Source of the DNA: a virus
Lineage: Duplodnaviria; Heunggongvirae; Uroviricota; Caudoviricetes
DNA: 64,000 bases
Virus record (IMG/VR): IMGVR_UViG_3300042275_000481
Location: 38,172-102,171 of that record
Strand: one strand, 5' to 3'
Shown here: one piece after another, positions 1 to 62,550 of the stretch
Layout of the letters: each line of letters opens with the position of its first letter
Numbering within the stretch: the stretch's first letter is position 1
The notes under the pieces: model-generated
Databases searched by the model: none
The model's input: the letters and a program-made list of their open reading frames with translations, nothing else
Told to the model about the DNA's origin: nothing
Program-made: the position numbers and the translations under genes

Positions 1-1154
1 GAAATGCTATTTTTATCATTATAATATCGAAACATCTTATTGGAAGTAAGAGCAATTTTTATTTTGTCTGTGCCACTTAATTCCGCATAAACAGATTGGT
101 TAGGAAGCCAAATAATTGAGTTATTTTTAAATTCTCTATCCTTATTTGCAAAATTCACGAAATTTTTATAGACTTTTATAATAACTGGTTTGCCTATACC
201 ATATAATGGGTAACTCTCTAATTTTTTATAAACACCTGCTGTACTAGTTTCTTCTGTTCTTATTTCAGGAACAGTTGTAAAATCTAATACAGTTGTCATA
301 GGATATGTATATTCTTCTAGTACTATATCTGCAGCAGTATCATTTAATTCAAATACAGTTTCTCTATTTATGTACTCTTTTAAATCTGGCGTGCCTGGCG
401 CACCGATAGAATATGTTGTGGTTCTCTTATATTTTTCATAATAAACCAATTTCTTATTGTAACCTTGATTTACTAGTCCAATACATTCTGGGAGAAAGCG
501 TTGTGGTATGATTTCAGTAATATCTTGAACATTATTCAAAACACTTCTGATAGTTGAATTATATCTTCCAAAGTTATAGTCTATACCATTTTCAGTTGTT
601 TCCCTTTGGTATTCATCTATATAGATATATTTACCAAGAGTGCTGTCAAAATATGGTATTTTAAATTCCTTATTTTCATATATGTATGCTACTAAACTAG
701 GAGTATATACATCCCATCTCTTATAGATGTCATTGTATTCTATTGTTGCTGTAGGATATATAAGAGTGTTATCTTTTAAATCTGTAACGGTAGTCTCATC
801 AAATTCTATAAAATGTTCCCAAGTAGAGCCTACTAAGTCTTTCATTCTGTATTTGTATGGAATTATAGTTTGTAGAACAGGATTGTAATATAATTTATCA
901 ATAGCACTTGTTGAATTTATTTCTGGTGTTGTAATAGAAGTAACACCATAATAATTTTGAATGTCTCCTAAAATATTATTAAATGCAAATGGAGATTTAT
1001 AGAAATATGTACTAGCATCTGCCGTGAATTCGTATGTATATATTATTGGATCGTCAGCATACTTTGTTTTAAAATCTCTTCTTGCTAAGTTGGTCTTATT
1101 AAAATATTCCATGAATAAACTTATTGGAATGTCGTTAAGATATAGTCCTTTCAT
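1..1154 (-). CDS. hypothetical virion/tail-associated protein, 5'-proximal part; the gene runs off the window start
   Basis: Not in the supplied ORF track because it is truncated by the window edge. Minus-strand ATG at 1152-1154 preceded by a GGAGGTGG RBS (revcomp of 1157-1167). Continuous reading frame to position 1. Sits in a block of large structural-looking genes. Confidence 0.55.
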   Translation of the reverse strand, partial: MKGLYLNDIPISLFMEYFNKTNLARRDFKTKYADDPIIYTYEFTADASTYFYKSPFAFNNILGDIQNYYGVTSITTPEINSTSAIDKLYYNPVLQTIIPYKYRMKDLVGSTWEHFIEFDETTVTDLKDNTLIYPTATIEYNDIYKRWDVYTPSLVAYIYENKEFKIPYFDSTLGKYIYIDEYQRETTENGIDYNFGRYNSTIRSVLNNVQDITEIIPQRFLPECIGLVNQGYNKKLVYYEKYKRTTTYSIGAPGTPDLKEYINRETVFELNDTAADIVLEEYTYPMTTVLDFTTVPEIRTEETSTAGVYKKLESYPLYGIGKPVIIKVYKNFVNFANKDREFKNNSIIWLPNQSVYAELSGTDKIKIALTSNKMFRYYNDKNSI

Positions 1155-1213
1155 ATTTCCACCTCCAAATTTCTCATATAATTAATTGTTGTTGATAGTT
1201 AATATAATTAAAA

Positions 1214-1252
1214 AACAAAAAAAAGACAAGTTCCCCCTACCGCTTGGTAGGT
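1214..1252 (-). terminator. rho-independent terminator (hairpin ccctaccgcttggtagg plus T-run on the minus strand)
   Basis: A GC-rich inverted repeat at 1235-1252 is followed, on the minus strand, by a run of about 8 T (1214-1224). It lies at the 3' end of the ORF-less GC-rich region. Confidence 0.55.
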
Positions 1253-1860
1253 TTCACCGCATCCTTCCCGTCATCACCCCAGTGACGAATATCCTCCATA
1301 GCTGTTGCAAACTTCGCGACAAACTACTTCAAACATTTTCTTGTACCCTCATTCCGTCATCACGACGTTCAAAAGATACTGGGTGGTTAACCCGGGGTGA
1401 CACAGCTCATCGATTTTACCAGCTTCTTTCTAACGGGCCCAACCTGAGCTTCCACCTTCAATCCACTGATCGACTTACTGTACTACATGATTTGTTATTA
1501 CGGGACTCCATGCAGAGAGTATCCCAACCAATCGCCACCACAGCAATTGGATTCAAAGTTTTCAATGCAAACTTTGCAGCATCTTGGTTTAGTAAAACTG
1601 GCAACCAAGTACCATAAAACAGTTTGCTAATTTTTAAAAGGTAATCAACGAACCTCCTGATTTTAAAGGCAATCAAGCGCCACATGTTTGAACTATTGAT
1701 TCCAAATTATAATGGGGAAATCAACAAACCCTCTACTGTGGTAAATAAATTTACCACCAAAAATACTCAGTATCAAATTACTGAACTGACCAAGCTACAG
1801 TTCATACCAATTTAGCCAGCCTGTACTGATTACTAATATTGGGGAATAGTATAGTTGTCT
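1215..1860 (-). ncRNA. candidate large structured non-coding RNA (~640 nt), class unassigned (ROOL/GOLLD-like size)
   Basis: GC content is clearly elevated relative to flanks. No credible ORF: the only ORF, 1186-1617 on the plus strand, lacks an RBS and has odd composition. Many local helices are visible (e.g. ccggggtgacac / gggcccgttag). An intrinsic terminator ends it on the minus strand, the same orientation as the neighbouring genes. Confidence 0.4.
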
Positions 1861-1936
1861 ATTCTATTCAGATTTATAATATATATTTAAAATTTGATGG
1901 TTTCTAAAAAGAAATAAATAACCAAAAGGTTATTTA

Positions 1937-2164
1937 TTATTCTTTAGTTGCTCTTTTGAAAATCCCTAGGAATTTTTTACTTTCTTCTTTTGCTTCTACA
2001 ACTTTCTTTAATTCAGGTTTACCTTGTTTAGCTTGTTCTTGTAAAAGTCTAGCTTTTTGTGCTACTGTTAAAGCTTGTTGTTGAATTTGTTCAGCTTCTT
2101 GTGCGTCTACTTTTTTAAGTTTTCCAGCAACTTCTTTAGCTGATTTTTTGAATTTTTCGAACAT
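1937..2164 (-). CDS. small Lys/Glu-rich protein, unknown function
   Basis: 75-aa ORF with RBS. The hairpin aaataaccaaaaggttattt lies immediately downstream (1911-1936). Confidence 0.45.
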   Translation of the reverse strand: MFEKFKKSAKEVAGKLKKVDAQEAEQIQQQALTVAQKARLLQEQAKQGKPELKKVVEAKEESKKFLGIFKRATKE

Positions 2165-3658: not shown

Positions 3659-5857
3659 TTATCCTGTTTTACTCATCCATGGTACTGATTTCATATTAAG
3701 AGTTCTACCAACTTTTTTCTTTCTTAAGGTGATATACTCATTATTTTTATCTCTACGATTTTGACTGAAATCATTCCATAATTGTCCCGTCAAGGTAGCA
3801 TTACCTTCACCAGAGACTCTATTTATCATTTGTTTCCAATATTTATTCATAGGTTCAGAGTCACCGTTATAAAGTGCTCCTAATCCTGCCATATTATCTA
3901 AGAATACTGTAAATGATGGATTAGCTGATAAAAAGCTAAAACGTTTAACCATAGCCAAATATGGATATAAGTCTGTAATTGTAAATGAGCCGGAAATTGC
4001 TCTTGGAAGTTTGTCTTTAGTCCATAAGTTTGCATCTCCACCTTTAATCCAAGTTAAGTCAGATATAAGTGCAAGGTCTGATGTAAATAGACCAGGGATA
4101 TCAGCTCTAACAAAGAATGGTGATACAAATCCGTTATCAGCAGCTTGTCTTGGTAAGGCAAACGCTAATAAACTAAAGAATGGTACATATACATATTGGA
4201 ATATACTCAATGGGTCTCCATATGGAGAAACAAAGTTAAAGTTGAAGTTAAGATTTTTACTGTAATTCGAGTTTGCCCATAAATTTGGATACATAACTTT
4301 CATACCATTAGTTACAGAGAATGCTTGAACTAATGAGCTTAAATCTTGTTCAGTTGCAAGATTTTTAACACTCTGTAATATACCTGATAAACCACTAGCA
4401 TCACCTTTTACACCCTGCAATGTACTTTTAAATGTATCTATTTGAATATCTAAAACACCAGCCATTCTTCTCATAGCGCCAATTTTGTCAGTTCCCATAC
4501 CCGTTATAAGATTCAATCTCTGGAATTGGTCTGACGCAGCATTGGCTCTGTCCTCTAAACCTGATGAGAATTCTTGGTTACTAATTGCCTCAGATACAGC
4601 ACTCATAGTTACATAGAATCCTAATGACGATTTGTACTTCGCTTGTAATGTTTCTCCATAATTAGATGAATTAGAAAGCGGATCGAAAAACGAGAATAGA
4701 TTGAAACTATTATTATTTTTGGTTCCCAATCCAAGTTTAATCCACATAGTATTTAACATCGTTTCTAAATATGAGTAGTATTGATTGTATTTTGCTTGGA
4801 AGGTGTAGTATCTTTTATCCTTTTCTGCAAAATCAGGATCTAACCCATTTTTTAGTAAGTAACTCATAACTTCTTCTACACCTTCGGTTTGGTTTGTATA
4901 GTTTGATGTAGAAATAGTTTTGTTATTAAAATCAGACGCACTTGATGAAGATGTAGCATTCTTATAAATACTACTAGCACCAGTTCTTAAACTTTGAGTA
5001 AAAGAACCACCGTTAAATTTTGGCAGACCAGGCGTCAAGCTTAAGAATACAGAATCTTTAACAAATGTATTTATTGTTGTTCTATTATTTGGGTCTGAAA
5101 TATGATTAAATAGTGGTGGACCACCTAATAAAAGGTTTCCATATAAATTCGCACTATTATTATCTGTTGAAGGGTCTAATGGAGTATTTTGTAAGAAGGT
5201 AATATTATATTGCCCAACTTGTCCATTTGTAGCATTTCTGAGTTGTGACAAGAAACTATTGCTTCCTGTGCTCCATGATTTTTCCATTGCAAGACCATAT
5301 CTTGTCTCAGTTACACCATCTTGGTATACAAGTGCTGATGTGATGATTTCGCCAACAGTTTTGATTGTTTGTCCAATTGCAGTCTTTTCGCCGCCAACTA
5401 AATTAGCAAGCGCATTTATACCTTTACCTAGCGTGGCAGAAGGGTCATTAAAGAAGTCGCCGACAATATTCGCGCCAGTTGTTGGCACCCAATCCCAAGC
5501 ACTATTTACTGCTCCTTTAATAGAAGACCATGCAGATGATAAACCAGGTTTAACTTTACCTTTTACTGTATCATAGTCAATTGTTGAGAGTGGGTTATAT
5601 GCACTACTTGCGAAATTAGAAGCTACATTCCCTACATTATTTAGGAAGTCGCCAGCAGCTCCTATTGCATTTGCTAAATCAGGATTTTCACTAACTTTTT
5701 TTATAGTTGTTAATATATCTTCTCCAGCGTCTTCGGCAAAATCTATTAAATTATCTGTAACGTCACCAATTTTATCAAAAGCATCGGAGGCGAAGTTTGA
5801 AACGTCTGATGCAGTATCTTTTATACCATTCCAGGCATCTTTCATAAATTTAAACAT
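3659..5857 (-). CDS. large virion-associated structural protein (hypothetical)
   Basis: 732-aa ORF rich in Gly/Ser/Asn/Thr, typical of tail/baseplate proteins. It immediately follows the 998-aa protein on the same strand. Confidence 0.5.
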   Translation of the reverse strand: MFKFMKDAWNGIKDTASDVSNFASDAFDKIGDVTDNLIDFAEDAGEDILTTIKKVSENPDLANAIGAAGDFLNNVGNVASNFASSAYNPLSTIDYDTVKGKVKPGLSSAWSSIKGAVNSAWDWVPTTGANIVGDFFNDPSATLGKGINALANLVGGEKTAIGQTIKTVGEIITSALVYQDGVTETRYGLAMEKSWSTGSNSFLSQLRNATNGQVGQYNITFLQNTPLDPSTDNNSANLYGNLLLGGPPLFNHISDPNNRTTINTFVKDSVFLSLTPGLPKFNGGSFTQSLRTGASSIYKNATSSSSASDFNNKTISTSNYTNQTEGVEEVMSYLLKNGLDPDFAEKDKRYYTFQAKYNQYYSYLETMLNTMWIKLGLGTKNNNSFNLFSFFDPLSNSSNYGETLQAKYKSSLGFYVTMSAVSEAISNQEFSSGLEDRANAASDQFQRLNLITGMGTDKIGAMRRMAGVLDIQIDTFKSTLQGVKGDASGLSGILQSVKNLATEQDLSSLVQAFSVTNGMKVMYPNLWANSNYSKNLNFNFNFVSPYGDPLSIFQYVYVPFFSLLAFALPRQAADNGFVSPFFVRADIPGLFTSDLALISDLTWIKGGDANLWTKDKLPRAISGSFTITDLYPYLAMVKRFSFLSANPSFTVFLDNMAGLGALYNGDSEPMNKYWKQMINRVSGEGNATLTGQLWNDFSQNRRDKNNEYITLRKKKVGRTLNMKSVPWMSKTG

Positions 5858-12415: not shown

Positions 12416-12424
12416 AATATTATA

Positions 12425-12535
12425 GAAATATATAGTGATACGCTATAATATCTCTGCTATCCGAAATGTCACTCGAGAAAGAGAGGGAGGAATTCCTCTC
12501 GAGTGTGTCATTCCGAGGCGAGGAACCCAAAGCTA
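12425..12535 (+). ncRNA. candidate small structured RNA with its own promoter-like element (tgatacgctataat)
   Basis: AT-rich -10-like element tagtgatacgctataat, followed by GC-rich nested hairpins (cactcgag...ctcgagtg; ggaacc...ggttcc). No ORF. Confidence 0.3.
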
Positions 12536-12559
12536 GGTTCCAGGAATGTTTTAATGTAT

Positions 12560-12705
12560 AATATTTTGACATTATAGAAAAATTAGTGATACGCTAAGAT
12601 ATGTATTGTGGAAAGAATCCGAAGCTGCACTTAACCTACCGCAACCGGCCTCCGAGTGCGCTTCCGGCATTCTCGCCCGGATTTGCGCATTAATGCCATT
12701 GTAAT
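12560..12705 (+). ncRNA. second candidate small structured RNA; promoter TTGACA-17-gatacgctaagat
   Basis: TTGACA followed 17 nt later by a -10-like gctaagat. It repeats the tagtgatacgcta box of the first element. Followed by a GC-rich ORF-less segment (ccggcctccgagtgcgcttccgg...). Confidence 0.3.
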
Positions 12706-12715
12706 TGTATAATGT

Positions 12716-12752
12716 AAAAAAAAAAGAATAACCGAAAGGTTATTCTTTAACT
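12716..12752 (-). terminator. intrinsic terminator hairpin gaataaccgaaaggttattc (bidirectional)
   Basis: Perfect hairpin flanked by an A-run and a T-run. It sits at the convergence point of plus- and minus-strand units. Confidence 0.5.
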
Positions 12753-21863: not shown

Positions 21864-22412
21864 TTATTCAGGAATTACTAATATACCATAATTTCCATCA
21901 TTACGTTTGTAAATAGTCGAAATTAAGGCATTATTATCTTTATCTTTGAAAATAAAGAATGAGTGTCCAAGAAGTTCCATTTCTTCAATTGCTTGTTCAC
22001 GAGTTATAGTTTCTAACGGAATAAACTTTTCCCTTGCAATCTTTCCTGTTTCTTCTTGTTCTTCATTATAAATTGCTTCTAATTCTTCTTGTAAATCAAG
22101 AATATTAAAAGCTAATTTATTTCCATTTCTATGCTTCATTCGCATAGTTTTATATTTTCTAATTTGTCCTTCTAATTGATTAACAACTTCAATAACAAGA
22201 GCATAAAAATCTGTACCAGAATGTGACGCTCGGATGTTGCCTGGAATTGCTATTTCTAATTTTAGTTGATGTCCTTCTTTCTTGAGCGTTGCTCTTCCAT
22301 CTACACTATCAACAAACCTCTTTAACTTTTCTACCTTCTCAATAACATAAGTTTTCATTGCATCGGTAAATTCAATTTTTTTCTTGTCTGAGTAGAATTC
22401 CATAATTTTCAT
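21864..22412 (-). CDS. hpf: ribosome hibernation promoting factor (long HPF/YfiA family)
   Basis: N-terminal RaiA/HPF fold region. C-terminal dimerisation domain ...EEMELLGHSFFIFKDKDNNALISTIYKRNDGNYGILVIPE is characteristic of long-form HPF of Firmicutes. Confidence 0.75.
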   Translation of the reverse strand: MKIMEFYSDKKKIEFTDAMKTYVIEKVEKLKRFVDSVDGRATLKKEGHQLKLEIAIPGNIRASHSGTDFYALVIEVVNQLEGQIRKYKTMRMKHRNGNKLAFNILDLQEELEAIYNEEQEETGKIAREKFIPLETITREQAIEEMELLGHSFFIFKDKDNNALISTIYKRNDGNYGILVIPE

Positions 22413-33216: not shown

Positions 33217-33491
33217 GCTAAACTATCTCTTTATATTTCTATAAAGAACTGACTATATCTTCACCCGATAAACGGGGTACTGCATTTCGAGTTCGCTTGA
33301 ACCCTACTCCCATAAGGGATAGTCGATGAACCTTCATCTCATTGAGATGTTTGGCTGCGGATTGCCCAATCTCTTGCCTTTTTACCATCTCTCCGACGTT
33401 ACTCTTCGATTAACAGGTAGCTAAGAGCTCTAAGGGGTTTCCCGCAATTAACAGTATTTTCTTTTGTATATCACTATACAATGGGGCGTAT
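33217..33491 (-). mobile_element. ORF-less group I intron (Clp intron B)
   Basis: R (revcomp of gggatagtcgatgaacc, 33316-33332) and S (33251-33259) elements. Conserved gcggattgcccaatct and gctctaaggggtttcccgcaatta blocks. Proposed 5' splice site after U of tgg-att. The 3' splice site is ambiguous: ..tagcg or ..gatata. Confidence 0.5.
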
Positions 33492-33628
33492 AATCCACCC
33501 AGGGGCACTACCAGTAATTTTTGTTACATCCATTTCAGTACCATATTCACCCATATTTAATTTGATTAAGTTTCGTTCAGCACCACAGAATTGCTTTGCA
33601 ACAATTTTACAAGTTTCGGTTTTACCGA
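33492..33628 (-). CDS. ClpC/ClpA-like ATPase, exon 2 of 3 (46-aa micro-exon)
   Basis: Encodes VGKTETCKIVAKQFCGAERNLIKLNMGEYGTEMDVTKITGSAPGWI. This is the remainder of the D2 Walker A (GPTG|VGKTE) through the ...G-A-P-P-G-Y-like motif. Confidence 0.6.
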
Positions 33629-33938
33629 CCGTTTATATTCCATCGAAATCGTTAATTTCAATGCGTTCTCTTATGAACTGCTTATACTTTCATATAAGAC
33701 TAGACTATATCATCACCTTTTTCAGGTGGTTTACATTTCGACTCACTTGAGTCTACTCCTTACGGATAGTCGTTGAACTTTTCTCTTATTAAGAGACTTA
33801 GCTGCTGATTGCCCAATCTACACACTTTTCAAGCCTTGGCTTTTCCTCACGGATCGCAGTGGCAGTGTAGCTCTAAGGGGTTTCCAGCAATTAGTAAACT
33901 TTGCTTATGTAAATTTCTTTACATAGGGGCTAAATTTA
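33629..33938 (-). mobile_element. ORF-less group I intron (Clp intron A)
   Basis: Exon 1 ends GPTG (ggt, U) followed immediately by TAA. The intron ends ..ataaacg (G) before gtcggtaaaacc. R (33754-33768) and S (33693-33701) elements, plus the gctgctgattgcccaatct and gctctaaggggtttccagcaatt blocks. Confidence 0.65.
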
Positions 33939-35408
33939 ACCCGTAGGACCTGCAAATACCATTGATGTCAATGGTTTCTCTGGATCGACTAATCCTCTTT
34001 CAATGTATCTTAGGTTCTCAATAACACGGTTCAATGGTCTTTCTTGACCTAATAGAACACGTTTCAACTCTTTTGCAGTTGCTTCTGTTTTGTTGTCAGC
34101 AATATTGATATCATATTTGACTTTAATCGCTGTGCGAACATCATCTGTGAAAACAATTTCACCGTCTTCATTGAAAACAGTTGAACTGGCAAATGCAAGT
34201 TCCAACATATTAATTGCTTTTGCTGGATTTGCTTGGTCAAGGGTGTATTTTTCAGAATAGTCTAAGACTTTTCTTACTAAATCGTCCTCAGCCTTCTTAC
34301 CAAAATATTCTTCGATATCAGGTTGTACACCTTTAAGAATTTGATAAGTTTGTTGTTTTGTAGGCTCACTAATGTTTACCTTATGGAAACGTCTTTCTAA
34401 TGCTTTGTCTTTGCTGATGTGTTTTTGATATTCATCATCAGTTGTAGTCCAAATCATTTGAATTTCACCACGAGTGATATATGGTTTAAGAATATTACCA
34501 CCACTTGCAGCTCCTTCTGCGTCTCCTAATTTCACCATCATATGTGCTTCATCAATGAACAGAATTACTTCTGGATTTTCTTTGACAAGTTTAATGATGT
34601 TCATAAGTTTTTCTTCAAAATCACCACGATATCTAGTTCCAGCAACTAATGCACCTGGATCTAATTGGTATACAATTTTGTTTCTGAACTTTTTAATAAC
34701 ATTTTTATTATTAATACGATTTACGAATTCATATACTGCAACAGTCTTACCTGTACCAGCAGGTCCAACGAGAATCGCATTTCTAATTGATTTTCCTGAC
34801 AAAGCCATTTGAATTTGATTAACAGCATTGTCTGCACCGATTACAACTGGTTTCGCTTGTTTCACATATCTGTTAAGATTTGTTAACTCACGGATTTTTT
34901 CCAATGCATCGATTTCTTGTTTAGTTGCAACAATATTAAATGCTTCAACAATTTTCTCAGACATTTGGTCAACTTTTTGAGTTGAACCGCCGAGAACAAA
35001 TTCAAGAATACTTCTAAGTTTATAACTTGGGTCTGAAAATAACACTTTAATAAGGTCTTCAACTTGCATTTGTCTGCGTTGTGCAAGAGCATCTCTTTTA
35101 AGTTGATTTCTTACAGCATTACCTTCTTCATGCCAAGTAACTTCAAAACGTTCTCCGCCTACATCCAATCCAGGATATAGTTCCAAGAATACCTTTTCAA
35201 AATCTTCTCCCTTAACTTCGTATTCTTGTAAGATATTCGTTAGAGTTTCATACGTCTCAGCAAATCTTTCAGTATCTTTATTCTTCTTCAAGAAGATTGT
35301 TGTACCTAAGAATAGATGAGGTGTACCAACCCAATTTTGATAGTTCTTAATTGCAATTTGTCCCGCTTTTTGCGAAATCATTTCGACTTCTTGTGATAGT
35401 GCCTTCAT
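33939..35408 (-). CDS. ClpC/ClpA-like ATPase, exon 1 of 3 (Clp-N repeat, D1 AAA+, start of D2)
   Basis: D1 Walker A GPAGTGKT. Walker B ILFIDEAH. ALERRF. Ends at ...MVFAGPTG (first half of the D2 P-loop). Confidence 0.75.
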
Positions 35409-37393: not shown

Positions 37394-38851
37394 TTATTCT
37401 TCTTTCATTAAGTTTTTAAGCGTACTGTCGAATTCAGAAAGTTGCAATAAGACCTCACGTGCAAAGCATTTAGAAATCTTAGAGAATACATTCTTTCCAT
37501 CTTTTGCAATAACTTTCTCTACATTTGAAAGACCTTTTGCGAAGGTGATTCTTGTAGAATCGTCAAGCATTTGAACGAATTCTGTGATTTGATCCTTATA
37601 GTTATTGTATTCTTTTGCAATCTTCAAATCAGATGATTTTTTCTTATTTTCAAAGTCAACAATTGTTTCAGCGATGTAGTAAATAACTGTGTCAGCAGTA
37701 ATCTTTCTACGAAGTGCACCTTGTTTGTTGAATTTAACTTTAAGTTCATTACTGATTGTTGCGGTTTTACCATTGATAAGTTCTTCTGGTTTAATAAGTG
37801 TGCTTGTATCTTTTAAGTTACGGATAAATGCACGACCTGCTGTTTGACCAACTTTACCAATGATCATTCTTTGCATATCGCCATCTTCGTCTGATCTATC
37901 TTGACGACTTAGAAGAGGGGTTTTAGCAAATACTTGGAAACTTTCATAAATATATGCAACAATTTCCCAAGAACGTGGTGATGGATGTTGCTCATCAGTA
38001 TCCTTATGAGAGTTGTCTTTTGTCATAAATTGACTTTCATCAACAGCAATTGCGTTGATAACGTCTGTATTAATTCCTTTATCAAGAGCATAATCTACCC
38101 AGTCGCTTAACTTAGCATCAACAACGATTTTAAGGAAGCGGTCTTTTTGAGCGTCATCCATTTCGTTAGTTGCATAAGTTGAGTTTTGAGATGATGGATT
38201 GACTGCGCCTACAATCGTAACCCACCAAGGTAAGTCATAACCATTGATATTTTTGTTAAGAACGATGTTCATTAATTCTTTCATTGTTTGTGGTTCTGTA
38301 CGGTTAAGCTCATCAATAAATAGTAAGAAAGGTTTAATTTCTCCACTTTCGATTAATGCAATTTTAAGTTCTGCTGGTAATTCTTCACCGAATTTAAATT
38401 CGTTGATTTCTCCATCAACAAGACGTTCCATTTGAGAACGTGTTGCTAATACTTTTGCTTTCTTAGTTTTAGGGTCTGTATAAACCATACCTTCATCAGT
38501 AAGTTTAAGAGCTCCACCTAAGAAACCTTCTTCTTTTGCAATTCTGTAATATTCTTTTTCAAGTTTCATAATATTACTTGTTACATAATAAGGAACGAAA
38601 CGAACTTCTGTTCCTCCATCTTTAGTTGGGCTTGCAAATGGTAAACCAGTTACTTCCCCTTCTTTTAGAGATCCACCTTCAACTACGTTACTGAACCCTC
38701 CAAGTTCTTTTGCAGCTTGGTGAATAATTTCTGTTTTACCGATACCATGAGGACCTGATAAAAGCATTGTAATACCTTTACCTCTTGGTGTAATAAGATT
38801 TGCTAAATATGCGCGCTTAACTAAGCGCTTTGACACTTCAATTGTTGCCAT
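37394..38851 (-). CDS. MoxR-family AAA+ ATPase (AAA_5)
   Basis: Walker A LSGPHGIGKTE. Walker B LLFIDELNR. Sensor-1/Arg-finger region TIVGAVNPSSQNSTYATNEMDDAQKDRF matches the MoxR ..ATQNP...LP.A.LDRF signature. Confidence 0.75.
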   Translation of the reverse strand: MATIEVSKRLVKRAYLANLITPRGKGITMLLSGPHGIGKTEIIHQAAKELGGFSNVVEGGSLKEGEVTGLPFASPTKDGGTEVRFVPYYVTSNIMKLEKEYYRIAKEEGFLGGALKLTDEGMVYTDPKTKKAKVLATRSQMERLVDGEINEFKFGEELPAELKIALIESGEIKPFLLFIDELNRTEPQTMKELMNIVLNKNINGYDLPWWVTIVGAVNPSSQNSTYATNEMDDAQKDRFLKIVVDAKLSDWVDYALDKGINTDVINAIAVDESQFMTKDNSHKDTDEQHPSPRSWEIVAYIYESFQVFAKTPLLSRQDRSDEDGDMQRMIIGKVGQTAGRAFIRNLKDTSTLIKPEELINGKTATISNELKVKFNKQGALRRKITADTVIYYIAETIVDFENKKKSSDLKIAKEYNNYKDQITEFVQMLDDSTRITFAKGLSNVEKVIAKDGKNVFSKISKCFAREVLLQLSEFDSTLKNLMKEE

Positions 38852-62218: not shown

Positions 62219-62455
62219 TGCGTTCTCTTATGAACTGCTCATACTTTCATATGAGATGAGACTATATCTTCATCTTTCGATGTTTCCTGTTTCGGACCAC
62301 TTGGTCCTACTCCTTACGGATAGTCGTTGAACCTTCATCTCATTGAGATGTTTGGCTGCGGATTGCCCAATCTACACACTTTTCAAGCCTTGGCTTTTCC
62401 TCACGGATCGCAGTGGCAGTGTAGCTCTAAGGGGTTTCCCGCAATTAAGGAAATT
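62219..62455 (-). mobile_element. ORF-less group I intron (unknown-gene intron 2); boundaries approximate
   Basis: R (62318-62333) and S (62249-62257) elements, plus the gctgcggattgcccaatct and gctctaaggggtttcccgcaatt blocks. Nearly identical to Clp intron A. Confidence 0.55.
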
Positions 62456-62461
62456 TTATAA

Positions 62462-62550
62462 GAGCATAACTGTTTACCCTTAATATCAAGAACTGGTTTG
62501 TCTAATAGACGCCCAAGTTCACCTGTAATTAAACCGGCATACATAATTTT
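62462..62550 (-). CDS. internal micro-exon of the unknown intron-interrupted gene (approx. boundaries)
   Basis: Only one frame is open between the two introns: KIMYAGLITGELGRLLDKPVLDIKGKQ... It begins right after an intron-terminal G (..gagtttaattg|aaaatt). Confidence 0.4.

Follow-up and report, generated by a model that had tools for sequence, protein, structure and literature searches.

A candidate gene for a large structured noncoding RNA behind an early, virion-polymerase-type promoter in a jumbo phage related to AR9

To our knowledge, elaborately folded noncoding RNAs (ncRNAs) of more than about 500 nucleotides (nt) are very few in bacteria and their phages, namely ribosomal RNA, group II introns, OLE, GOLLD, ROOL and HEARO, and nearly all such large RNAs are unusual, with roles in catalysis, in nuclease guiding or as RNA-only cages. 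The phage members of this group provide the closest described systems for the locus reported here. ROOL is a many-helix ncRNA with a mean length of 581 nt that is found in phages and prophages of low-GC Gram-positive bacteria, assembles into RNA-only cages through kissing loops, and has no known protein partner or function (PMC5737381, PMC12286853). A further large RNA, lnc001, is an intergenic transcript of ~635 nt in Staphylococcus phage K (Kayvirus) that is abundant from its own early promoter (PMC9241854). Here, we describe an element on the minus strand of a 64,000-nt stretch of a Caudoviricetes genome (IMG/VR record IMGVR_UViG_3300042275_000481, positions 38,172 to 102,171), which is referred to in its entirety as the window. 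We consider it likely that this element is an independent gene for a highly structured ncRNA of ~650 nt in a phage related to AR9 and PBS1. This assignment is made because the element has an early promoter, a terminal hairpin followed by eight U residues, boundaries set by flanking signals, no conserved open reading frame (ORF) and helices with compensatory changes. A large structured minus-strand RNA had been proposed at this site from the letters of the DNA alone (the sequence-only reading), and the proposal is borne out by covariation in four copies, strand-specific stability and an exact early promoter at the 5' end.

In kind, the element is nearest to ROOL and GOLLD, yet it is a member of neither. 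It is similar to ROOL in size, ornateness and phage setting. However, ROOL and GOLLD often lie beside tRNA genes, whereas the element is flanked by protein genes and ARAGORN detects no tRNA or transfer-messenger RNA (tmRNA) in the 64-kb window; unlike ROOL, the element is also known from one phage lineage only. GOLLD is likewise large, occurs in phages or prophages and has one half that is conserved and one that varies, but GOLLD keeps its 3' region, whereas the element keeps its 5' two-thirds and varies in its 3' domain. As a ~650-nt RNA whose early expression is predicted, the element has an analogue in size and expression in lnc001, which also comes from a large lytic Firmicute phage; in contrast to the element, lnc001 adjoins a tRNA gene and has a host-type promoter, not a virion RNA polymerase (RNAP) promoter. 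No homology to lnc001 was detected by nhmmer --max with a four-sequence profile on NC_005880.2 12800-15000. As a separate observation, the 3' part of lnc001 (L292 833-969, locus coordinates, minus strand) scores 43.4 bits against the DUF3800-I motif, for which the gathering score is 44.2.

At the Rfam gathering score, the whole window gave no family match for the element, and examination of all 4227 Rfam families by cmscan at E<=10, over window 1100-2000 and over positions 400-1250 of the divergent relative L061, returned only unrelated matches of 9-20 bits, which is chance level. ROOL (RF03087) is ruled out because neither of the two divergent copies matches its covariance model at the gathering score or at E<=10, and GOLLD (RF01998) because there is no model match and the conserved and variable halves are the opposite way round. 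Likewise, there is no Rfam model match for group II introns, HEARO/omega RNA, OLE, RNase P, 6S RNA, phi29 pRNA or riboswitches, and nothing tmRNA-like or tRNA-like was detected by ARAGORN or Rfam. The sequence-only reading had named ROOL, GOLLD, HEARO, tmRNA, RNase P and group II introns as leads without claiming membership of any, and all of these leads are now closed by the absence of a match at E<=10 in two copies.

In AR9, early genes are preceded by the consensus AAATATATATTAT-(6N)-G+1, which is used by the injected virion RNAP, and late genes by AACA-(6N)-TA/G (PMC5312081). Both classes of signal are found around the element, and the features that frame it are as follows.

1217..1869, minus strand: predicted ncRNA of ~650 nt, from +1 through the end of the U8 tract, supported by the GC island, the lack of a conserved ORF, the folding z-score, homologues and covariation.
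1870..1891, minus strand: AR9-type early (virion RNAP) promoter, with AAATATATATTAT at 1888..1876 matching the consensus at 13 of 13 positions, six bases at 1875..1870 and G+1 at 1869.
1217..1269, minus strand: predicted terminator module, composed of an extended stem, the hairpin CCUACC-AAGC-GGUAGG at 1251-1236 and U8 at 1224-1217, supported by covariation of the hairpin and the predicted fold.
1179..1190, minus strand: AR9-type late promoter AACA-ATTAAT-TA of an 827-amino-acid (aa) protein gene (ATG at 1154), supported by the consensus and an invariant block; it lies outside the RNA and marks the downstream boundary.
1904..1947, minus strand: terminator hairpin of the upstream 75-aa protein gene (1937-2164), seen as an inverted repeat; it marks the upstream boundary of the element.
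Start at 1154, extending beyond the window, minus strand: the 827-aa protein gene, the neighbour directly downstream.
1937-2164, minus strand: the 75-aa protein gene, rich in lysine and glutamate, the neighbour directly upstream.

The promoter of the element also agrees with the annotated early promoters of AR9. It is conserved in the three informative relatives introduced below, with a 13/13 match in L061 and one mismatch each in L280 (AAG...) and L281 (AAT...), the latter variant occurring at one annotated AR9 early promoter. More generally, the motif family TTTWWWYATATATTATAAAT has 11 matches in the window compared to 2.2 expected, mostly on the coding strand. The terminator hairpin occurs in three covarying versions, CCUACC/GGUAGG, ACUACC/GGUAGU and CUUACC/GGUAAG, and in the predicted fold the extended lower stem brings the U-tract beside the structure. 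On the basis of these signals, the element appears to be a separate early-class unit of ~650 nt running from 1869 to about 1217. The sequence-only reading had placed it at 1215-1860; its downstream end stands approximately, and its start is corrected to the +1 position at 1869, with the promoter at 1888-1876.

Further copies of TTTWWWYATATATTATAAAT are found on the minus strand at 13217-13198, 21829-21810, 22473-22454, 38928-38909, 43368-43349 and 55193-55174, and several of these directly precede genes with good ribosome-binding sites (RBSs). One gene situated right behind an early-type promoter (21864-22412, minus strand) encodes a protein resembling the ribosome hibernation/S30EA family (phrog_8990, E = 1e-9).

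Given that the element lies directly upstream of the 827-aa gene on the same strand, with its terminator 60 nt before the start codon, it could conceivably be a long 5' leader or attenuator that controls this late gene in cis through the terminator. We regard this as quite unlikely. Past the U-tract and ahead of its RBS, the 827-aa gene carries a separate late promoter of the AR9 type, which indicates that the element is not the leader of that gene. L001, L061, L062 and L280 all have the promoter block CAACAATTAATTATATGA unchanged, and this extends to those among them that lack the RNA. Additionally, the promoter of the element is of the early class whereas that of the 827-aa gene is of the late class, and no riboswitch, T-box or leader family matches the element. 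On the upstream side, the terminator of the 75-aa gene is homologous to that of L001, where the big gene comes directly after it. The AACA-6N-TA arrangement inside CAACAATTAATTATATGA also precedes the 827-aa homologues of L001 (~3975-3990) and L062 (3389-3406). The conservation of this block suggests that the late-promoter rules of AR9 hold in this distant phage group.

Relatives were located through the neighbouring proteins. The same phage is present at 99.9-100% identity in nine contigs, and informative variants are L061 (Logan SRR28714108), L280 (Logan ERR1198919) and L281 (JGI 3300042269, sequence incomplete). A fifth copy, L293 (ENA), carries deletion errors of the long-read type and was left out of the covariation analysis. 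All four relatives have the element in the same slot with the promoter and +1 kept. In two more distant phages, L001 and L002, which show 39% identity in the big protein, the element is absent and the terminator of the 75-aa gene is followed by the big gene. In L062, at 24% identity in the big protein, the slot holds a 174-aa ORF with an HExxH motif driven by an early promoter (L062 2780-3327). The slot thus seems to be a landing place for varied early cassettes, in the manner of accessory ("moron"-like) genes. As far as the tools could reach, searches of GenBank phages, plasmids, IMG/VR and GTDB genomes gave no homologue from beyond this phage lineage, and none was present in the first 50 kb of AR9. 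Exact-pattern scans covered IMG/VR, a metagenome collection and GTDB, and the matches, checked by nhmmer, included no homologue; the metagenome collection, which likewise gave none, does not contain this phage itself.

Comparison of the four copies used for covariation reveals two sequence types, A (the window and L280) and B (L061 and L281). The 5' ~390 nt show 80-97% identity across all four copies and conservation extends to the final ~60 nt, made up of GGGUGAU...GAUGCGGUGAAA and the terminator hairpin, whereas the middle ~230-260 nt cannot be aligned between types A and B. The helix that closes this variable region, RUCAYCC with GGGUGAU, is nevertheless common to both types. Within type A, the window and L280 are 3.2% apart in the RNA, compared to 11.2% at third codon positions of the adjacent gene. 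Between the window and L061, the upstream 75-aa gene (1937-2164) is 92% and the 5' domain of the RNA (1480-1869) about 88-90% identical at the nucleotide level, compared to 65-73% for the flanking genes, and the third-position difference between lineages is 13% in the island formed by the 75-aa gene and the 5' domain versus 40% in the big gene. Recombination with a breakpoint within the RNA is the probable cause of this pattern; alternatively, the small protein and the RNA may have been inherited together.

The element has a GC content of 0.44-0.48, with a peak over 300 nt of 0.477 against a 64-kb mean of 0.317 (standard deviation 0.041), making it the GC-richest island in the entire 64 kb, above even the three group I introns of the window. 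The plus strand is C-rich, so that a minus-strand RNA of the element is G-rich. GC enrichment over a ~30% background and the lack of an ORF led by an RBS were both part of the sequence-only reading, and both hold. A mechanical call finds a plus-strand ORF of 143 aa and a minus-strand ORF of 75 aa (1458-1685), and the latter is reported by gene callers in several assemblies. A decayed or unrecognised protein gene, or a set of small-peptide genes, could account for the openness of these frames, but we judge this most improbable. Neither ORF is preceded by a Shine-Dalgarno sequence or has a Pfam match, and the 75-aa ORF, compared to 5.8 billion protein clusters, matches only itself; in these protein searches, put forward beforehand as a way to overturn the RNA proposal, no degraded gene was recognised. 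In addition, no ORF is common to the two sequence types, indels shift the frame, and the ATG of the 75-aa ORF is missing in L061. As for the 143-aa frame, a long ORF is to be expected on the G-poor plus strand.

Folding stability favors the minus strand. Relative to dinucleotide shuffles, the minus-strand z-scores are -3.4 for the window and -4.7 for L061, compared to -1.7 and -2.2 for the opposite strands. Covariation in the 5' domain was scored on four sequences (window, L061, L280 and L281). Here, 98.7% of cells are paired and 8 pairs are changed on both sides, compared to 2.6+-1.2 in shuffles (0/500 as high) and 0-1 in slid controls. For the 3' domain, the structure was predicted from a single sequence and the substitutions of its partner were then scored. 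The type A domain, folded by minimum free energy (MFE) from a single sequence, shows 2 compensatory pairs (P about 0.0008), and its 2 broken pairs are not significantly fewer than the expected number of about 3.4. The type B domain shows 3 compensatory pairs (P about 0.0005), 5 one-sided changes that keep pairing, and 0-1 broken pairs against about 4 expected. On the type A consensus structure, the window and L280 differ by 2 compensatory and 3 one-sided changes that keep pairing, with 0 broken, and the type B consensus structure likewise contains no pair-breaking substitution. Absence of covariation had been named in advance as grounds for rejecting the RNA, and compensatory pairs were found (8 in the 5' domain, and 2 and 3 in the two 3' forms), albeit in only 4 sequences, which puts significance of the R-scape type out of reach. 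Summed over the helices, G.U cells number 109 and A.C cells 1, and 99.3% of cells are paired on the RNA strand compared to 80.8% when read on the other strand. The excess of G.U over A.C indicates that the pairing belongs to the minus-strand RNA and not to the DNA or the other strand. Taken as a structured ncRNA in general terms, the element combines compensatory helices, the lack of a conserved ORF and strand-specific stability, as judged from 4 sequences.

Not every feature of the locus is peculiar to an RNA gene. The motif TTGRTTNCC occurs four times in a stretch of 145 nt, there are several inverted repeats, the GC island sits at a module boundary and the transcript would be G-rich, all of which could be expected of a DNA-level element, such as a replication origin, packaging site or iteron array, or of a primer or R-loop transcript resembling ColE1 RNA II. 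Nevertheless, the changes keep pairs of the RNA type (G.U versus A.C, as above), the stability is specific to one strand, promoter and predicted terminator frame the element exactly, the number of repeats is not conserved, and there is no AT-rich unwinding region inside. We therefore assign this explanation only a small chance, and return to the independent RNA gene as the reading to be developed. Its predicted parts are listed below.

1844..1869, minus strand: P1, a 5'-terminal hairpin from +1, GAAUAG-A-AUAG-ACAA-CUAU-A-CUAUUC, the first helix in the RNAalifold prediction.
1782..1804, minus strand: P6, the hairpin UGAACUG...CAGUUCA, supported by covariation.
1583..1726, minus strand: four related hairpins with the 5' arm NUUGRUU-NCC, recognised as a direct-repeat family: H1 at 1726-1694, H2 at 1677-1656, H3 at 1649-1626 and H4 at 1609-1583.
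1483..1550, minus strand: conserved core, composed of P9 (CCAAU-loop-AUUGG, 1550-1528), P10 (CUGCAUGG/UCAUGUAG, 1515-1483) and a competing local hairpin at 1525-1502, supported by covariation.
1273..1481, minus strand: 3' domain of type A, composed of subdomain 3a (1481-1402) and the multi-branch subdomain 3b (1401-1273), which is closed by GUCACCCC/GGGGUGAU, supported by covariation between the window and L280.

Among the helices, P6 has the clearest support: in L281 it reads CAAACUA...UAGUUUG, with three compensatory pairs, two one-sided changes and 0 broken. One compensatory pair each is found in H1, H2, P9 and P10. The conserved core is the most conserved block of the element, and changes do occur in it: P9 has C-G in place of U-A in L061, whereas P10 has A-U in place of G-C in L281 and in place of G.U in type B; P10 and the local hairpin at 1525-1502 may possibly form a pseudoknot. 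P1 is invariant in the 4 sequences apart from its loop, which is ACAA or ACUA, and this loop change is mirrored before the U-tract by UUGUCU or UAGUCU. A contact between the 5' end and the 3' tail is therefore possible, as AGACAA/UUGUCU in one form and AGACUA/UAGUCU in the other. The repeated hairpins vary in number, with L280 and L293 lacking H2 and H3 and L281 lacking H3 and H4. The deletion in L280 and L293 (relative to window 1690-1618) falls between the repeats CTTGATTGCC and CTTGGTTGCC, and because the form without H2 and H3 is seen in two independent samples, it is a real natural allele and not an assembly artefact. H1 has a 13-nt loop, CCCAUUAUAAUUU, that is identical in all four copies although the stem differs, and this loop includes the palindrome AUUAUAAU. 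Beyond the RNA, the NUUGRUU-NCC hairpin motif occurs at chance-level frequency. The 3' domain of type B (L061 and L281) is unrelated in sequence to that of type A but has the same closing helix. The MFE structure also joins the core to the 3' end by CUGCAU/AUGCGG, a pairing that was dropped as it is broken in L061.

Several observations weigh against an independent, highly structured RNA gene. The good sequences number four, with one error-prone addition, and all belong to a single phage lineage, which is what limits the significance that can be attained. Furthermore, the consensus structures were derived from the same alignments that were used for the pair counts, and a crude test that took in every possible helix of two sequences did not reach significance (16 compensatory pairs compared to 14+-4). 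Long-range pairs predicted from a single sequence are often broken in the homologue, so that the global fold is provisional. Part of the conservation of the 5' domain may reflect recent recombination or ancestry rather than constraint. Finally, the terminator is atypical. The sequence-only reading had described a strong minus-strand terminator, of which the hairpin is real, with its three covarying variants, as is the U8 tract; however, an 11-nt spacer separates the two, and a simple terminator scan made no call at the element because of this distance.

Variation in presence among phages could also be a sign of a selfish or mobile RNA or its remnant, for example an ORF-less intron-like ribozyme, a retroelement RNA or a cassette resembling a miniature inverted-repeat transposable element, with no function for the phage. 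This phage has at least three group I introns, the ends of the element are complementary (AGACAA...UUGUCU, a pairing that covaries) and T-runs are found on both flanks of the insert. We nevertheless hold this explanation to be highly unlikely. No group I or group II intron, HEARO or ribozyme model matches the element, whereas the true introns score 85-98 bits, and the element is not within a gene. It is equipped with an early promoter of the phage itself, changes at a lower rate than synonymous sites nearby, and is single copy, with no second copy of any part within the 64-kb window and no copy resembling a template repeat/variable repeat (TR/VR) pair; no transposase is present among the flanking genes scanned. 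Two specific candidates were also rejected. A group I intron (RF00028) gives nothing at E<=10 at the element, in contrast to 85-98 bits at the true introns, and the element is intergenic. The template RNA of a diversity-generating retroelement or a retron ncRNA is made improbable by the lack of a TR/VR-like repeat in the window, which covers 64 kb of a genome of at least 127 kb, and by neighbours that encode RusA, a hydrolase and virion proteins.

If the element is an RNA gene as proposed, its promoter class bears on when it would be expressed. By analogy with AR9, we think it reasonably probable, with somewhat less assurance than for the gene itself, that the virion-borne RNAP transcribes the element right after injection, in the first minutes of infection. 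In the predicted fold of the transcript, about 390 nt at the 5' end form a conserved domain (P1-P10), to which the four related hairpins with their invariant loops belong. A 3' domain of about 260 nt follows, which evolves fast and has two multi-helix subdomains, and the conserved terminator module comes last. What the RNA does is a more tentative matter. It might act in trans as a folded scaffold or decoy, which we regard as the leading possibility although it is less likely than not, and in which the repeated hairpins would bind several copies of a host protein, a phage protein or the RNA itself. A scaffold or decoy was considered because hairpins that recur in differing numbers and keep their loops unchanged resemble protein-sponge RNAs, and because the palindromic loop of H1 would permit self-association through kissing loops, as in ROOL, GOLLD and pRNA. 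The RNA would then be an accessory early host-takeover factor, and not an mRNA, leader or ribozyme; a role in host takeover or anti-defence fits with the slot, which elsewhere holds an early accessory protein gene.

Sponge RNAs of the CsrB/RsmZ type have repeated similar stem-loops with conserved loops, the number of which varies among homologues, and phi29 pRNA is an early phage RNA that multimerises by loop-loop contacts. Similar to the Csr/Rsm RNAs, the element has repeated, similar hairpins in variable number, but no GGA motif is conserved in its loops, and compared to both the Csr/Rsm RNAs and pRNA it is much larger and has extra domains. The absence of any Rfam match at the element would extend to the Csr/Rsm and pRNA families, provided that Rfam contains them. 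The most far-reaching version of the proposal, which we consider doubtful, is a new class of ornate phage RNA that is made by the virion RNAP at the start of infection, acts untranslated, carries a swappable 3' domain and serves as a host-takeover or anti-defence factor, either as an RNA-only multimer formed through AUUAUAAU and the repeated hairpins or as a sink for a host defence or RNA-binding protein.

The source phage is, on sequence evidence, an uncultivated distant relative of the Bacillus jumbo phages AR9 and PBS1. The window encodes a multisubunit RNAP beta'-like protein with 33% identity to that of Bacillus phages PBS1/AR9 and about 30-32% identity to its counterparts in Staphylococcus jumbo phages, and the recorded sequences of this phage include a contig of at least 127 kb; taken together with the group I introns, these features led us to classify it as a distant AR9-like jumbo phage. 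The introns are located as follows.

33229-33506, minus strand: group I intron (Rfam RF00028).
33681-33948, minus strand: group I intron (Rfam RF00028).
62238-62540, minus strand: group I intron (Rfam RF00028).

Genes of AR9-like phages are often interrupted by introns, with which the introns of the window agree. The host is probably a low-GC Gram-positive bacterium. At the DNA level the window has no similarity to GenBank phages, and the 827-aa neighbour, which has no tblastn match in GenBank phages, is represented by only three other clusters in the protein database. The remaining flanking genes encode RusA, an alpha/beta hydrolase and a 732-aa virion protein, and all flanking genes are on the minus strand. 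The sequence-only reading had placed the element inside a block of structural genes; virion proteins are indeed present, but the RusA and hydrolase genes make the surroundings mixed.

Elsewhere in the window, two tandem GC-rich elements of ~100 nt lie in a convergent intergenic region at 12420-12720, each beside the repeat AGCGTATCACTAnnnTTTCTATAAT, which on the plus strand resembles a sigma-70-type promoter ending in TATAAT. Nothing in Rfam matches these elements at E<=1, and their z-scores lie between -1.4 and -3.3. The two elements are candidates for small RNAs, on either strand.

In our view, the element represents a credible family of large structured RNA in phages, one that had not been described before and that has a narrow distribution. 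The caveat to its significance is that narrow distribution, within one uncultivated lineage that has no known host. The size of the RNA is suited to in vitro transcription, chemical probing and cryo-electron microscopy, its ends are predicted precisely, and natural variants with deleted or swapped domains exist to steer experiments. As a candidate, it extends the repertoire of large RNAs to an AR9-like jumbo phage with a consensus promoter for the virion polymerase, and if this early promoter acts as it does in AR9, the RNA would be among the first molecules made after injection of the phage DNA.

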